A stretch of 64,000 nt of DNA from Thermoplasmata archaeon (lineage in GTDB: Archaea; Thermoplasmatota; Thermoplasmata; Lutacidiplasmatales; UBA184), in contig JAGWLG010000003.1 in the NCBI GenBank assembly GCA_028864975.1, forward strand, positions 64,001 through 128,000, read 5' to 3'. Of this stretch, positions 19,339 to 26,518 are shown piece after piece; position 1 is the stretch's first letter; every line of letters starts with the position of its first letter. The translations under genes were made by a program, and so were the position numbers. The notes beneath the pieces are model-generated. The model ran no database searches, was not told where the DNA came from, and saw nothing but the letters and a program-made list of their open reading frames with translations.

Positions 19339-21951
19339 TCAACCCTGGGGCGGAAACCCCGGAGGCGGGCCGGGTTGGACTGGCCAAGGCGGGGGCGTTG
19401 GCGGTCGTCTCCTTCGCTGCACGAGAACGACCGCGGGTACGGAGATCGCGAGTGCGATGACCACGACGATCAGCACCAGGCTCATCGTGGTGCTGAGCCC
19501 GAGCAGGCTGAAGCCGGGGGCCTGCTGCGTGTCGCAGGGCGGCTGGGCGGGGCCGACGACCGTGACGGAAGTGTTCGACCACGCGTGCGTGCTGCGCGTG
19601 TCCGTTACCTCCAAGCTCACCGAGTAGGAGCCCACGGAGCCGAACGAGTGGGAGACATTTCGCCCGGTCTGGGGAGAGGAGCCATCGCCGAAGGTCCACG
19701 AGAAGGCGTAGGCCGGAGCACCGCCCCTCGCAGAACCCTCGAAAGAGTCGACGAACGGACTGAGAGCGCCCCCATTGCATGACCCCGTCAGGCTCCCGGA
19801 CGTGGCACTCGCGTTCCCGAAGGCGACGAGCTGAGGCGGCTGGCCTCCCGAGCTCGCGGCGACCGTGATCGCGACCGAGTTGCTCCCCGCGACGGTCGAC
19901 GACGCGTCGGTCGCCCAAACGCGGTAAGTGTAAGTGCCCGGGTGGGCGAAGGACAGGGCCGAGCCGCCGCAGCCAATTAGGGATGTGTTGGTCCCATTGA
20001 GGGACCACGCGCAGGTGTACGGGGAGACCCCGCCGGAGACGGTAGGGGTCAGGGTCACGGATTGCCCCACGGTGGCCGAGACGGAGGAGGGCGTCAGCCC
20101 CACCGAGAGCGGCGTGCTGGGGGTGGTGTAATTGACCCACAGACTGCCGTTGGTGCTGACCGAGACGTTCCCCCACGAGTTCGTGAGGATCTGGGACCGG
20201 CCCGCCGGCATCTGGAAGGTCGTCTGCGAGAAGGTCTCTCCGGTGCAGGGGAGGGCGTGCACGGGGTATCTCCCGCCCAAGAAGGTGGCAACGCTGCCCG
20301 TTGCCTGGGTCGTCCCGTTGAAGCTCACCGGGGAGCATGCTGCGGGAGAGACCTGGAAGGAGATCGTGTAATGTGCGGGCGGAGGGACCCAGGTGTAGGA
20401 GGCGGTGAGCGTCCCGTTCCCCCAGACCCCGACCGTCGTCGGGTTGCCCCCTAGGCTGGGGAGGGTCAGGGAGCCCGTAGCGGTCCACTTGGAGAAGGAA
20501 TATCCCAGGCAAGTCAGAGCGTTGGCTGAGTAGTTGCCGTCGGTGAACTGGACCCGTGCCCCATTGTTCTCGTTGAGCCCCCCGAAGATGACCGGGCCGC
20601 AGGCAGGGGGAGAGATCACGAACGTCACATTCCCCGCGTGCAGGGTCTTGCCGCTCCACGTGTAGTAGGCGGTCAGGCTCCCCGTCCCGGTGACGTTCGC
20701 GAAACCGCCGGCCGAGGTCGGCCTCTGGACCGTGACCCCACCGGTGGAGTTCCATTGCTGGAAGGAGAAGTCGGTGCAGGGGTTCGCGACGATGGAGTAG
20801 GTCCCGGCGACATAGGAGCCGGTGGAGCCGCTCCCTTGGGACGTACCGTTGAAGGCGATGGGGCAGGTGGCAGGATGGACGAAGAAGGAGATGGTCGGAG
20901 GGGATGTCGTCAAGTTCCCGAAGACGTATCCTGAGGCAAGTTGGGCCGTGTCTCCCTGGAAGTAGTCCAGGTCGACGTTCGAGGTCCCACTGATCCCAGG
21001 TACGGTACCCGTGGCCGAGTGCTGCCAGAAAGTCCAAGTGGGCCAGATCCCGGTGTTGGGGCTGCTCACGCCCCAGTTGGCGATCCAGAGGGGCCAGGTC
21101 GTGAGGTAGGGGTCGAGACAGCCTGTGACCTCGCTGACCCCGGTGTAGAGGACAGGGGTGACCCCGGTATACCCGTCATGGGCGGCGATGTACTGCTGAA
21201 CCGTGGACATCCACATGTCGACCCACGTCGACATGGCGTTGTTGCTGATGGTCCCGCATCCTTCCTCCAGATCAAGGGCGGGGTAGAGGTAGCCGGAGGA
21301 GAAGTACGGCGCGGCGATGGACAAGTAGTGGTTGGCTTCCGTCGTGGCATTGGTCGCGATACAACCGACGGAGCTGTCCGTCGCAGGGCAGGCGAAGTCG
21401 TATCCCGCCATCCAGAGACCCGCGGCTTTTCCGGCGGGCATGTAGGTCGTGAAGGTAGGGTCGACAAAGCTCGCCCCCTGCGTGGCCTTGGTGAAGTCGA
21501 ACTTGTATCCCGCGCTCAGAACATTCGTCCAGTTCGTCACGGTCTCGTAGTGGGACGTATCGACCCCGTTCACTTCTGCTACGAACGGGCGAGAAGGGTT
21601 CGGGCCCCCGGCCGGGAAACCCGACGGCGTCGCGGTGCCCCCCGAGAAGCGTGTCGGACCTTGGACGGAACCGAGGAGCAGAAGGACAAGGAGCGCAGCC
21701 ACCCAGATGAGGCGTCCCCCGGGGCGATGCGCAGAGAGACCGAGCCGCGTCCCAAGCGACGATCCTCGAGCGGAAGGCCCGGGGCCCTCGGGAGTCCCCC
21801 TCCAAGGGATGGACCGACGGAACGCTCCCGGGGCAAGTTGGCCGGACCCACCTGGGGCGCCGGGCCCGAGGGGGAGTGCGGGCAGGGGGCGCAGCACCGT
21901 AGCGACGAGCGCGAACGCGGCCGAAGGCCGTGCCGGAGGCCGCCGCGACAT
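19339..21951 (-). CDS. Membrane-anchored GH25 (Chalaropsis-type) muramidase with beta-sandwich and PKD stalk
   Basis: GVDTSHY...KATQG...D..F...LDLEE..PVLYT..WPLWIANW...WTFWQHS.TG.VPGI...VDLDYF; three InlB-B-like repeats, two PKD-like modules, C-terminal TM plus RRRR and Pro tail; TATA-like AAATAG about 25-30 nt upstream. Confidence 0.9.
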   Translation of the reverse strand: MSRRPPARPSAAFALVATVLRPLPALPLGPGAPGGSGQLAPGAFRRSIPWRGTPEGPGPSARGSSLGTRLGLSAHRPGGRLIWVAALLVLLLLGSVQGPTRFSGGTATPSGFPAGGPNPSRPFVAEVNGVDTSHYETVTNWTNVLSAGYKFDFTKATQGASFVDPTFTTYMPAGKAAGLWMAGYDFACPATDSSVGCIATNATTEANHYLSIAAPYFSSGYLYPALDLEEGCGTISNNAMSTWVDMWMSTVQQYIAAHDGYTGVTPVLYTGVSEVTGCLDPYLTTWPLWIANWGVSSPNTGIWPTWTFWQHSATGTVPGISGTSNVDLDYFQGDTAQLASGYVFGNLTTSPPTISFFVHPATCPIAFNGTSQGSGSTGSYVAGTYSIVANPCTDFSFQQWNSTGGVTVQRPTSAGGFANVTGTGSLTAYYTWSGKTLHAGNVTFVISPPACGPVIFGGLNENNGARVQFTDGNYSANALTCLGYSFSKWTATGSLTLPSLGGNPTTVGVWGNGTLTASYTWVPPPAHYTISFQVSPAACSPVSFNGTTQATGSVATFLGGRYPVHALPCTGETFSQTTFQMPAGRSQILTNSWGNVSVSTNGSLWVNYTTPSTPLSVGLTPSSVSATVGQSVTLTPTVSGGVSPYTCAWSLNGTNTSLIGCGGSALSFAHPGTYTYRVWATDASSTVAGSNSVAITVAASSGGQPPQLVAFGNASATSGSLTGSCNGGALSPFVDSFEGSARGGAPAYAFSWTFGDGSSPQTGRNVSHSFGSVGSYSVSLEVTDTRSTHAWSNTSVTVVGPAQPPCDTQQAPGFSLLGLSTTMSLVLIVVVIALAISVPAVVLVQRRRRPPTPPPWPVQPGPPPGFPPQG

Positions 21952-22207: not shown

Positions 22208-23053
22208 CTACGTGGCCCGCACGACGTGGTTAAAGTCCCGTTCCAGCGTCGCGACCTGCGAGCGGCTGAACGCGCCGGGATCGACCGACAGCACGAGCAG
22301 CCCGTGGTGCTGCTGGACCTTGCTGTGCAGCCAGTAGACGAACTTCGTCGTGAGGTCGAAGGAGTTCTGCGTGTTGAGGAACTCGACCGCCTCGAGGTAG
22401 ACGAGCGCGGGCTCGGGCGTTCCGTTGAGGAAGTTGTCGACGCGCCCCGTGAGCTGCGTCGGGGAGGACTCGGCCGCCTCGACCCCCTCCTCGGTGGTCC
22501 CTTCGACACCCAGGTGGAGGATCACCAGGTCCTCGACAGGGGCCATGCGACGCAGTTCGTTCGGAAGTCTGGTGATGGCGAGCCCTCTTCCTACCCGGGG
22601 GAGGAGTTCGCGGAGGAACGAGCGCGCGACCTGGCGGGTCTCCTCCAGGAAGAGGTAGTTGTACCCTGGGACCGCCGGGGGGAAAGCGGGCGCGCTCGAG
22701 GAGCCCCGCGGCTGGACGCGCACGAGGCTCTCGACGGGGATGCCGACCGGGGTCGAGAGCAGGGTCTTCCGCTTGAGGCGCACTTCCTCGTCGAGGTGCC
22801 CGAGCCGGCTCTCGACGAAGACCCGGATCTCGGAAGGGGTGTGGCCCCTCGCGACCAGACGGGTCACGAAGTGGAGCGCGTCGCGGGCCCCATCGCCCCA
22901 GCCTCGGGCGTAGGAGGTCGGTCCGTCCCCCCTGGAGGAGGAAGTGTCCGAGTCGTCCAGGGCTTGGGGCTCCGTGTCGGTGCCCTCCTCTTCGTTCGCT
23001 CGTCGAGGGGCGGGGGACGCGGCCGGGGGAAGGCCTCCCGTTCGGCCGGTCAC
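22208..23053 (-). CDS. DUF835 domain-containing protein (degenerate P-loop/KaiC-like fold)
   Basis: GLAITRLP...LVYLEAVEFL...NSF....KFVYWL......GLLVLSVDPGAF......LERDF; GTG start overlaps the upstream stop. Confidence 0.75.
   Translation of the reverse strand: MTGRTGGLPPAASPAPRRANEEEGTDTEPQALDDSDTSSSRGDGPTSYARGWGDGARDALHFVTRLVARGHTPSEIRVFVESRLGHLDEEVRLKRKTLLSTPVGIPVESLVRVQPRGSSSAPAFPPAVPGYNYLFLEETRQVARSFLRELLPRVGRGLAITRLPNELRRMAPVEDLVILHLGVEGTTEEGVEAAESSPTQLTGRVDNFLNGTPEPALVYLEAVEFLNTQNSFDLTTKFVYWLHSKVQQHHGLLVLSVDPGAFSRSQVATLERDFNHVVRAT
22463..22492. repeat. 30-bp exact direct repeat, copy 2 (inside the DUF835 CDS)
   Basis: Identical to 19217-19246; encodes EEGVEAAESS on the minus strand. 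Confidence 0.9.
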
Positions 23054-23538
23054 GTGCGCGCGGTCCGGGCCGCGGCCCGGGCGAGAGCCTCCTGAGAGGC
23101 CGGGGAGGCTGTAGGTTCGCTCGCTCCGCTCTCGCGCGAGGGGGCGAACTTGTAGCCGTAGTGGATCACGCCGGCGCGCCCGTCCTCCCGGAGCTTGCGG
23201 AAGGCGGCGTGCACCCTCATCCCGATGTGCACGTCCGCGGGGGTGATGTCGACGACCTGCCCCGTGAGGAGCGGGCCCTCGGGGGTCTTGATGAGGGCCA
23301 GCACGTAGGGGACCTGCATCTCGAAACCCTCCGCCCCCTCGTGGACGACCGAGAAGGAGTAGACCTCCCCGTCCCCCGAGAGGGTGAAGGGCTCCATCTT
23401 GCCCAACGACTGGCGGTGCGTCTGGCAGGTCGGGCAGACGGCCCTCGGCGGGAAGTAGACGGTCGAGCAGGCGCTGCAGCGGTTCCCACCCAGGTTGTAG
23501 CGGCGGGGCGTCTCTCTCCAGAATCTCGCAACGGTCAT
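23050..23538 (-). CDS. DUF35 Zn-ribbon/OB-fold protein (thiolase/HMGCS scaffold)
   Basis: RFWR...RYNL.G.RC..C...YFPPR.VCP.C...G.VYSFSVV...PYV.ALI...G.....Q....HYGYKF; start ATG 23538. Confidence 0.93.
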   Translation of the reverse strand: MTVARFWRETPRRYNLGGNRCSACSTVYFPPRAVCPTCQTHRQSLGKMEPFTLSGDGEVYSFSVVHEGAEGFEMQVPYVLALIKTPEGPLLTGQVVDITPADVHIGMRVHAAFRKLREDGRAGVIHYGYKFAPSRESGASEPTASPASQEALARAAARTART

Positions 23539-23563: not shown

Positions 23564-24736
23564 TCAGGTCGCCCTCTCCAAGAGATGGACGACGCTCGTG
23601 GCGCCCGTGCCTCCCAGGTTGTGGGTGAGACCGACCTGGGCCCCCGCGACCTGCCGCTCCTTCGCCTCGCCCCGGAGCTGTCGGACGACCTCGGCCACCT
23701 GGGCGACCCCCACCGCGCCGAAGGGCTGTCCTTGGGCCTTGAGCCCGCCGGAGGAGTTGATGGCGAGCCGGGCCCCGGGAGGGCCGACGGTGCCCTCGGC
23801 GAGGGCCTTGCCGACGCCCCCCTTCGGACAGAATCCCAGGTCCTCGAGGGCGAGGAGGGCACTGATCGAGTAGGCGTCGTGGATCTCGGCGACCTGGACG
23901 TCCGCCGGGGTCCTCTTCGCGTGGCGGAACGCCACCTGGGCGGCGAGACGGGTCGCCTCCACCGTCGTGATGTCCTTGCGGTGCTGCAGCGCGAGCGTGT
24001 CGCAGGCGACCTGGCTCGCGCAGATGCGGATGGGGGTGTCCGTGTGCTCTCTCGCCTTCTCGAGCGGGCCCAGGACCAGCGCGGAGGCCCCGTCGGAAGC
24101 GGGGGCACAGTCCATGACCCCCAGAGGTTGAGCGACGGGCGAGCCTTCCAGCACTTGGTCGAGGGAGACCTTGTTGCGGAAGTGCGCTAGGGGGTTCTTC
24201 GAGCCCATCTCGTGGGCGAGCACGGGGAAGCGCGCGAAGTCCTCTCTCCGAGTCCCGTGGTCGTGCATGTGCCGCCGGGCGATGAGCGCCCACAGCGAGG
24301 GGAGCGTCGCGCCGAAGACCGTCTCCCACTCCTGGTCCGCGCTCGCGTTCGCGATGTCCGTCTGGACATCCTCCGGGACGTCCGTCATCTTCTCGGCCCC
24401 GCCCACGACGACGTAGTCGTGCGCGCCGCTGGCGACGGCGAGGTAGGCCTGGTGCAGCGCGACCGCTCCGCTCGCTCCTCCCGCTTCGACGCGGATCGCG
24501 GGGAGATGATGGCCCGCGAGCCCCGCGTAGTCGAGGATCAGGGGGGCGATGTGCTCCTGCTCGATGAAGCTCCCCGAGGCCATGTTCCCCAGGTAGAGCG
24601 CGCTGATGTCCTTGGAGGAAAGCTTCGCCTCCTGGAGCGCGGCGAATCCCGCCTCGATCCCGATCTCCCGGAACGAGCGGTCCCAGAGCTCGCCGAACTT
24701 CGTCTGCCCGATGCCCAGGATCGCGACCTCCCGCAT
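23564..24736 (-). CDS. Archaeal/SCP2-type thiolase-fold protein with substituted catalytic motifs
   Basis: VAILGIGQTKFGE...VGGAEKMTD...DCAP.SDGA..INSSGGLKA; but EAGGASG, HDAY and GQP replace EAACASG, HDCF and GHP; start ATG 24736. Confidence 0.9.
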   Translation of the reverse strand: MREVAILGIGQTKFGELWDRSFREIGIEAGFAALQEAKLSSKDISALYLGNMASGSFIEQEHIAPLILDYAGLAGHHLPAIRVEAGGASGAVALHQAYLAVASGAHDYVVVGGAEKMTDVPEDVQTDIANASADQEWETVFGATLPSLWALIARRHMHDHGTRREDFARFPVLAHEMGSKNPLAHFRNKVSLDQVLEGSPVAQPLGVMDCAPASDGASALVLGPLEKAREHTDTPIRICASQVACDTLALQHRKDITTVEATRLAAQVAFRHAKRTPADVQVAEIHDAYSISALLALEDLGFCPKGGVGKALAEGTVGPPGARLAINSSGGLKAQGQPFGAVGVAQVAEVVRQLRGEAKERQVAGAQVGLTHNLGGTGATSVVHLLERAT

Positions 24737-24738
24737 GG

Positions 24739-25806
24739 TCAGCTCCCTCCCAGGTGGATCTTCCCGCGGAACTTCGCGTACATGGCGTAGGAGAGGGGAA
24801 CTCCCCCGTCGAGGAACTCCTGGACCGGGGGGCCGTGCTGCCGGTCGAAGCCCTCGATCCGGTCGGTGACCGTGAGGTCGAACGCGTCGGAGCCCGCGCC
24901 GCTGCCGTACCCGACGACCAACACACGGTCGCCGGCCTTGGCGTGGTCGAGCACGTTCGCGAGCCCGAGGAGCGCGGCACCGGAGTAGGTGTTGCCCACC
25001 CACGGGGTCACGAGACCGTACTTCATCTGCTGGTCGGAGAACCCCATGGACTTCCCGATGCGCTGAGGGAACTTCCCGTTGGGCTGGTGGAAAACGACGT
25101 GCTGGTAGTTCTGAGGAGAGGTCTGCGCCCGCTCCATCATGCGCCGCCCGCACTCTCCCACATGGCGGAAGTAGGCCGGCTCGCCCGTGAACCTTCCTCC
25201 GTGGCTCGGGTAGCGCTGGCCCTCCCGACGCCAGAAGTCGGGGGTGTCCGTGGTGAAGCTCTCCGTCGCGTTGATCTCCGCGATCAGGTTCTCGCGGCCG
25301 ATCACCAGCGCGGCCCCGCCAGCGCTCGCCGAGTACTCGAGAGCGTCACCGGGGGCGCCCTGGGAGGTGTCCGCGCCGATCGCGACACCGTAGGTGATCA
25401 TCTTGCTCGCCACCATCCCCATGCAGGTCTGGATGGCCGCCGTTCCCGCCTTGCAGGCGAACTCGAAGTCCGCCGCGGTGAGGTAGGGGGTCGCGCCGAC
25501 AGCCTGGGCGACGACCGTGGCCGTGGGCTTCACGGCGTACGGGTGGCTCTCGCTCCCGACGTAGAGCGCCCCGATGTCCCGGGGATTGATCTTGCCGCGG
25601 GTGAGCGCGATGCGCAGCGCCTCGGTCGAGATGGTGATGGTGTCCTCGTCCGGGGAGGGGACGCTCTTGCGGACGACGTTCAGCCCCTTTCCCATGGCGG
25701 CCCCATCGGTCCCCCAGACCTGCCCGATCTCCTGGGGCGTGATCCGGTAGCGCGGGACGTAAGCGCCGTAGCTCACGATGCCGACCTTCTCTTCGGTCAT
25801 GTCCAT
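24739..25806 (-). CDS. hmgB: Hydroxymethylglutaryl-CoA synthase (archaeal)
   Basis: [19 protein letters not shown] (catalytic Cys), FHQPNGKFP (catalytic His), GNTYSG. Confidence 0.96.
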
Positions 25807-25840: not shown

Positions 25841-26518
25841 TCAGATCTCCTCGAGACGCTTCAGGACCTCCTTCGGTCCGTACGGGGTCGTGAGGAGCGG
25901 GATGTTCTCCACCTCGGAGAGGCGGACCGCCAGAGGGTCGACGCGGCCGGGGGCGGAGTAGATGACGGCGGCGGGTTTGAGCGGGTGCGCGCGGATCGCG
26001 ACCATCGGGGAGCGACCGTACTTGACGCCGCAGAAGAGGAGGGCCCGCTGGGTCGTCCAGCCGTAGACCTGGACGAACTCCTGGGCCCCCAACGACAGGA
26101 TCGCCCGCGGGGCGTCGAGGAGGGTGAACCCGTGCAGGTCCCGGTGGAGGTCGACCCGGCTCGCGGGCTTCGCGTCCAGGAGCGAGGCGAGGGTCGTGAG
26201 GGGCACCGCGATGGAGAACTCCCGCATCGCGAGGATCCCCTCGGCGGGGGAGGGGAACCCCATCCGCTGGATGACGCGGCCTCCGTGCGACTTGTCGACG
26301 GCGACCAGCCCTTCCACGTAGCGTCGGATGAACCCGGCACCAGGGCTCTGACGCCGCTCGGCCTCGTAGTCCGCGATCACGGAGGGGACGGTCTCGAGCT
26401 GATGGGCGAGCTCCGTTTGCGAGATGCCGAAGTCCTCGCGCCATTTGCGCAACGTCCGCCCGGGATGGGGGGATAGGACTACCTCGCCCGCGATCTTCTC
26501 GCGGATCTCGACCGGCAC
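25841..26518 (-). CDS. XRE-type HTH transcriptional regulator, first gene of the HMGCS operon
   Basis: [27 protein letters not shown].....[15 protein letters not shown]...[10 protein letters not shown]. Confidence 0.88.

Follow-up and report, generated by a model that had tools for sequence, protein, structure and literature searches.

A thiolase-fold protein without catalytic residues in the HMG-CoA synthase operon of Thermoplasmatota

We found that the thiolase encoded in the HMG-CoA synthase (HMGCS) operon of a Thermoplasmata archaeon has lost its Cys/Cys/His catalytic residues. The protein keeps an intact fold and is under purifying selection, the HMGCS and DUF35 proteins encoded beside it are intact, and competent thiolases are encoded elsewhere in the genome. 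Loss of the nucleophile Cys is associated across the phylum with the presence of a bacterial-type thiolase. The operon thiolase is probably a pseudoenzyme subunit that has been kept for the HMGCS/DUF35 complex. Our literature search found no report of a catalytically dead thiolase in an archaeal mevalonate operon.

The operon and its thiolase

The genes encoding HMGCS (355 aa; 24739..25806), the thiolase-fold protein (390 aa; 23564..24736) and a DUF35 protein (162 aa; 23050..23538) follow one another on the minus strand of the window, i.e., the whole stretch of 64,000 nucleotides that was analysed (positions 64,001 to 128,000 of contig JAGWLG010000003.1, assembly GCA_028864975.1). The source is a Thermoplasmata archaeon (Lutacidiplasmatales; UBA184) with a genome of 3.6 Mb that is 89.6% complete. 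HMGCS is of the archaeal type and scored 540.9 bits against NCBIfam PRK04262 (cut-off 244) and 527.6 bits against TIGR00748. The DUF35 protein matched Pfam PF12172 and PF01796 and comprises a rubredoxin-like zinc ribbon (C21, C24, C35, C38; CxxC...CxxC) and an OB fold. The ATG codon of the thiolase gene lies 2 nt past the HMGCS stop codon, and a 25-nt gap with a GGAGG-like site separates the thiolase stop codon from the DUF35 start. This order, with intergenic gaps of 2 and 25 nt, corresponds to the tight coupling expected of genes for a complex. In public runs from two studies, one of mine drainage (2022) and one of soil (2025), contigs spanning the operon showed zero differences; the assembly may itself derive from some of these runs.

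On the HMGCS side, an XRE-type HTH gene (25841-26518, minus strand) ends 34 nt upstream of HMGCS; on the other side, the GTG start of a DUF835 gene (22208-23053, minus strand) overlaps the DUF35 stop codon (GTGA). With these two neighbours, the mevalonate genes may belong to a five-gene unit. The window also encodes an 870-aa predicted secreted protein with GH25 muramidase and PKD domains (19339-21951, minus strand), which may be an antibacterial lysozyme in an archaeon.

Profiles, alignment and a fold model placed the thiolase-fold protein in the SCP-x/archaeal AACT family. It passed PRK06064 over its whole length (496.8 bits, cut-off 420), and when the Thiolase_C_1/Thiolase_N pair was tested, PF22691 scored 151 bits and PF00108 scored 79 bits. 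However, it failed the Methanothermococcus-based equivalog NF053570 AcCoTHIOL_METTL, with 509.2 bits against a cut-off of 600. The M. thermolithotrophicus thiolase (6ESQ) was aligned by phmmer over residues 1-387 (E 4e-112), and the motifs were aligned without gaps.

CxS, HDxF and GHx are the motifs characteristic of archaeal ACATs (PMC12960953). In the nucleophile motif of the operon thiolase, RVEAGGASG (24467..24493, minus strand), Gly87 stands opposite the Cys of RVEAACASG in 6ESQ. In the second motif, EIHDAYS is aligned to EVHDCFA, such that HDAY replaces HDCF (23870..23881, minus strand), with Ala288 in place of the acid/base Cys and Tyr289 in place of Phe. In the third, GLKAQGQPFGA is aligned to GLKAAGHALGA, and GQP is found for GHP (23723..23731, minus strand), with Gln337 in place of His. 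All three residues by which a functional archaeal acetoacetyl-CoA thiolase is recognized, i.e., the Cys of the nucleophile motif, that of HDCF and the His of GHP, are therefore missing.

The initial annotation had described these substitutions (Cys to Gly, Cys to Ala and His to Gln) in a full-length, uninterrupted frame, beside an HMGCS and a DUF35 protein that keep their own defining residues. Re-translation of 23564-24736 (minus strand) confirmed the coordinates of the three motifs and yielded an uninterrupted product of 390 aa, and the alignment with 6ESQ bore out the three substitutions. HMGCS was likewise found to keep E86/C118/H240/N272, and DUF35 to keep its CxxC...CxxC zinc ribbon. If the operon copy is catalytically dead, its annotation as "acetyl-CoA C-acetyltransferase" would be wrong.

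Fold and constraint of the thiolase-fold protein

The AF2 model of the operon thiolase (pLDDT 92.9) has the five-layer thiolase fold and superimposes on the thiolase chain of 6ET9/6ESQ with a TM-score of 0.95-0.96 and an rmsd of 1.2-1.4 Å. Prediction of a complex of HMGCS, DUF35 and the thiolase-like protein gave a score of 0.93, and a control with HMGCS replaced gave 0.89.

Within the genus, the thiolase-like gene had a pairwise dN/dS of 0.09-0.16, compared with 0.09-0.10 for HMGCS and 0.12-0.20 for DUF35. The ratio of thiolase to HMGCS distances rose from 1.12 to 1.27 in lineages without the nucleophile Cys (hereafter Cys-less), i.e., the thiolase evolved only slightly faster there. The alignment with the Methanothermococcus thiolase and the Thermoplasmatota orthologues that the initial annotation had proposed, together with these dN/dS values, thus mapped the motif loss onto a gene under purifying selection.

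At the catalytic positions, the replacement residues vary among Cys-less orthologues: G/D/S/E/T at position 87, where the residue differs by lineage, S/A/N/D/C/V/G at position 288 and H/Q/Y/R/N/D at position 337. We defined conserved sites as those with the same residue in at least 95% of Cys-keeping orthologues (n=121) and counted a site as retained when at least 90% of Cys-less orthologues carry that residue. By this measure, 78/121 conserved sites are retained and 43/121 are relaxed. Clusters of relaxation lie at 86-87, 126-146, 210-212, 241, 286-291, 325-342 (including 325, 337 and 342) and 372-373; they comprise the three motifs and segments that, judging from other thiolases, would line the acyl/pantetheine pocket. 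Relaxation of the triad and pocket sites with retention of the others is the pattern expected if catalysis was lost and a structural role was kept. Across the Cys-less orthologue set, no site is newly conserved, and we found no Cys or His conserved only in these orthologues that could compensate for the lost residues. Five residues (Y70, N188, Y289, V342 and R388), none of which is a Cys, are invariant in the order-level clade of the window and do not occur in Cys-keeping orthologues. The partner proteins are fixed at their defining residues: the E/C/H/N tetrad of HMGCS is invariant in 91-95 orthologues, and the four Cys of DUF35 are invariant in 96.

Distribution of the loss across the phylum

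The initial annotation had asked whether the loss is shared across Thermoplasmata, and the answer is yes. The best 120 matches among 5.8 billion proteins (69-87% identity, nearly all of 389 aa) lack the triad without exception (120/120), and the eight nearest 50%-identity clusters in a representative library are all Cys-less. We sampled 190 Thermoplasmatota genomes, composed of 41 relatives and an overlapping even sample of 151 from the phylum, and read the operon thiolase in 150 of them. The nucleophile Cys is absent in 119/150. Among named records, Cys-less proteins were found in Methanomassiliicoccus, Methanomethylophilaceae and many other Thermoplasmata, i.e., named Methanomassiliicoccales are included, and C/C/H is kept in Methanobrevibacter, Methanosphaera, Methanoregula, Methanosarcina, Micrarchaeota and Hadesarchaea. 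The triad states of individual lineages include G/D/Y, found in closed genomes, and T/S/D.

State changes were counted on a FastTree phylogeny of the operon thiolases. The Cys state changed at least six times, three of these on well-supported branches, indicating that the Cys was lost recurrently; one clade is very large and for the most part Cys-less. The order HMGCS-thiolase-DUF35 was held in every relative fetched with flanking sequence, except in one genome (G187) and at loci that lie at contig ends. A Methanomethylophilaceae-like Cys-less operon thiolase was also seen on two contigs binned as Bacteroides ovatus or Dialister hominis (L233, CAVDQR010000106.1; L245, CAVICI010000004.1), which are probably archaeal contigs that were mis-binned.

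Other thiolases as a source of acetoacetyl-CoA

The search for other Cys-containing thiolases that the initial annotation had suggested yielded at least five catalytically complete thiolases in the host genome. Two are stand-alone type II thiolases (C116:22079-22852 and C97:35837-36610), both with the nucleophile Cys (C-x-S), NEAF, GHP and the CxGGG Cys. The latter (G000:C97:35837-36610) is located on the contig of the operon, 52 kb away from it and 28 kb before the start of the window, and adjoins a PCNA gene. The others comprise a FadI-like thiolase and three C/C/H-bearing paralogues of the SCP-x type; two of these paralogues have a DUF35 gene of their own beside them. Since at least five complete thiolases are present, thiolase chemistry in the operon subunit is not needed in this genome.

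A type II thiolase on the same contig, 26-52 kb from the HMGCS operon, was also observed in other genomes (G002, G003, G004, G008, G014, G018, G022 and G023); the linkage of the two within the family is loose but conserved. Two further paralogues of the host lack the nucleophile Cys themselves: in one (G000:C32:144988-146118, plus strand), it is replaced by Ser (VESASATG), with HDAF and GHP, and the other (G000:C98:5591-6925, minus strand) is PRK06365-like, has WGGATGG without the nucleophile Cys, and carries HDAY and GHP. A pair like these is also present in G187.

We then compared the Cys state of the operon thiolase with the presence of a type II thiolase, scored across genomes as a strong Thiolase_N match (E <= 1e-40). 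A type II thiolase is present in 115/119 Cys-less genomes; of the 4/119 exceptions, three are MAGs with a completeness of 74-80% and the fourth is G187, in which three C/C/H paralogues are encoded. Conversely, all tabulated genomes without type II keep the operon Cys (20/20), and the Cys is likewise kept in four additional genomes from families f29 and f34 that lack type II and have a divergent operon thiolase. Eleven genomes have both type II and the operon Cys, which fits a gain of type II before Cys loss. In family f51, the sole genome with type II is also the sole one to have lost the Cys, and in the closed genomes of family f8 (1.5-1.9 Mb), no thiolase other than type II is catalytically complete. 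Supported branches provided three independent contrasts between Cys loss and type II; all three point the way expected, but they are too few for statistics. The type II thiolase could serve other pathways.

HMGCS and its thiolase-like partner

In the sampled genomes, a thiolase-like gene, catalytic or dead, is present wherever archaeal-type HMGCS is found. In families f22 and f40 (24 genomes), HMGCS has the bacterial-type C-terminal domain, and archaeal HMGCS and the thiolase partner are both absent, indicating that the whole upper mevalonate module has been replaced. Genomes of these families (e.g., G075, G118, G044 and G056) encode two to four type II thiolases. In one genome of family f18 (G158, 99% complete), we found neither type of HMGCS and no operon thiolase; type II is present.

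The Methanothermococcus complex offers a precedent. According to the passages of PMC12960953 and PMC12329534 that cite Vogeli 2018, HMGCS is inactive and the thiolase is insoluble when each is expressed alone. Those passages also state that DUF35 ties the thiolase to HMGCS and that the complex has one shared, fused CoA-binding site (PMC12960953, PMC12329534). The co-occurrence of HMGCS with its partner and these data on the complex together provide a reason to keep a dead subunit.

The arrangement in G187 departs from this pattern. Here, a dead thiolase and DUF35 (L097, G187:C1:1177000-1181300; L196) are found without an adjacent HMGCS, and a purL fragment lies directly upstream. The sole HMGCS-like gene of this genome is divergent, is located elsewhere and scored 141 bits against PRK04262 (cut-off 244). 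G187 may represent an assembly problem, the genome being rated 78% complete, or a real counter-example. If the arrangement is real, the thiolase-DUF35 pair would have some role that is independent of HMGCS.

Comparison with known systems

The operon resembles that of the Methanothermococcus complex (2018) in having the same three genes, a thiolase that aligns over its whole length, and an HMGCS and DUF35 with their defining residues kept. It differs in that the thiolase of the window has lost the nucleophile Cys as well as the Cys of HDCF and the His of GHP. As the triad is missing, the first condensation, and hence the channelling of acetoacetyl-CoA, is impossible in the thiolase subunit.

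The same tripartite HMGS/ACAT/DUF35 architecture is found in PhlABC of Pseudomonas protegens and MucABC/SmaATase of Streptococcus (PMC12960953). In these complexes, one of the two thiolase-fold subunits is catalytically dead yet needed for assembly and activity (PMC12960953). They are, however, a mirror image of the present case: in Phl/Muc, it is the HMGS-like subunit that is dead, next to an ACAT-like subunit that has its Cys, whereas here the ACAT-like subunit is the dead one and HMGCS is intact. Their product is also an acylated aromatic or tetramate rather than HMG-CoA.

The steroid side-chain aldolases Ltp2-ChsH2(DUF35) and Sal-Shy(DUF35) combine an SCP-x-type fold without the nucleophile Cys with a DUF35 partner, as in our operon (PDB 6OK1; PMC12329534), and Sal has Gln at the position of the GHP His, as does the thiolase of the window (PMC12329534). 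However, the aldolases carry YDHF or YDCY with a catalytic Tyr, whereas the operon thiolase has HDAY, with His286 at the first position. Their DUF35 is fused to a MaoC-type hydratase in a steroid-degradation cluster; here, DUF35 is a free protein of 162 aa, and HMGCS, an HTH protein and a DUF835 protein are encoded around it. Their similarity to the operon thiolase (E 8e-34) is also far below that of 6ESQ (E 4e-112). A strict aldolase of the Ltp2/Sal type was therefore rejected, given HDAY without the catalytic Tyr, the free DUF35, the HMGCS neighbour and the missing hydratase.

The trypanosomatid SCP2-thiolase-like protein (SLP, PDB 5AB4-7) likewise belongs to the SCP-x class by its thiolase fold; its catalytic motifs are altered, and it is not known to act as a thiolase. 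Unlike the operon thiolase, SLP has no DUF35 or HMGCS partner and keeps YDCF, and the two are only about 27% identical.

Discussion

The initial annotation had proposed two alternatives: a subunit that acts as a scaffold or binds CoA without catalysis, in which case another enzyme would supply acetoacetyl-CoA, or an enzyme with different chemistry. Our results agree with the first of these: the gene is under purifying selection, the active-site shell is relaxed, the host has at least five complete thiolases, and loss of the Cys is linked across the phylum to a bacterial-type thiolase. We propose that the thiolase subunit would no longer be able to form an acetyl-enzyme or condense acetyl-CoA, but would still supply the partner surface for HMGCS and probably part of the CoA site. 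Free, catalytically complete thiolases from other loci, mainly the bacterial-type thiolase II, would make acetoacetyl-CoA, which would reach HMGCS from solution rather than by channelling. That the protein forms a complex with HMGCS and DUF35, that HMGCS needs such a partner and that type II feeds the mevalonate pathway are inferences.

A second role that a dead subunit might play is ligand sensing, in which the pocket would bind acetyl-CoA, acetoacetyl-CoA or CoA and tune HMGCS allosterically. The 78/121 strongly conserved sites that are retained exceed what a bare scaffold might need, and the fused CoA site of the parent complex is located at the interface. However, the pocket-lining segment 126-146 and position 241 are relaxed, and the results obtained here fit a scaffold equally well. 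We consider such a regulatory subunit unlikely.

New chemistry in the old pocket has a small chance of being the explanation. The thiolase fold with DUF35 would then catalyse a different reaction, such as an aldol or retro-aldol reaction or an acyl transfer in the manner of Ltp2, Sal or PhlC, and a tie of this reaction to HMG-CoA metabolism might persist. In Ltp2 and Sal, a Cys-less thiolase fold paired with DUF35 is a genuine enzyme (PMC12329534), the operon thiolase is under strong selection, and the pair in G187 is kept without an HMGCS neighbour. On the other hand, the catalytic Tyr of Ltp2/Sal occupies the first position of Y-D-[HC]-[FY], where His is found here (HDAY), and Cys304 of Sal has no counterpart. 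Among Cys-less orthologues, no substitute residue is conserved, and the three catalytic positions and the pocket lining vary; the order HMGCS-thiolase-DUF35 is unchanged across 150 loci, and a hydratase or other new partner gene is absent. Thus, of the different chemistry first suggested, the strict Ltp2-like form fails. A looser form is possible in the order-level clade of the window, since Y70 and Y289 are invariant there and differ from the residues of Cys-keeping orthologues.

There is a slim chance that the Cys-less subunit is not inert in either of two ways. It could have a new activity in its own order-level clade, which would be tied to the invariant Y70, Y289, N188 and R388, or HMGCS could perform both condensations, making HMG-CoA from acetyl-CoA alone while the dead subunit would only hold the CoA arm. 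Either case, if true, would give the archaeal mevalonate pathway a new chemistry at its entry step.

It is very unlikely that the operon still provides thiolase activity, whether through unconventional residues that make acetoacetyl-CoA or through HMGCS carrying out both condensations via the shared CoA site. The operon is otherwise unchanged, and no other thiolase was found in three incomplete MAGs that carry a Cys-less gene. Nevertheless, Gly, Ala and Gln are unfit as nucleophile, acid/base and activating residue, there is no conserved Cys or His to compensate, and at least five complete thiolases are present in the host genome. A decaying pseudogene or a sequencing or assembly artefact is almost certainly the wrong explanation: nothing beyond the missing residues speaks for it, and it is refuted by the open full-length frame with dN/dS of about 0.1, hundreds of orthologues of the same length, identical contigs in runs from two studies and a confident fold model.

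A pseudoenzyme subunit in this operon bears on how the archaeal mevalonate pathway is reconstructed. In Hoshino and Gaucher 2018, archaeal AACT is treated as universal, and many AACT homologues outside the main archaeal clades are described as lacking the catalytic CH motif (PMC6107057). Reconstructions of isoprenoid and membrane-lipid evolution (e.g., PMC6107057) assume that archaeal AACT is universal and functional. If the operon copy is dead in most Thermoplasmatota, the first step of the mevalonate pathway would be performed there by a bacterial-type thiolase, which would affect named Methanomassiliicoccales and probably Thermoplasmatales. The substrate channelling of the archaeal complex would then be inapplicable to Thermoplasmatota with the dead copy. 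The family would also provide an example of an enzyme that became a pseudoenzyme subunit, repeatedly, after a redundant enzyme had arrived, mirroring Phl/Muc.
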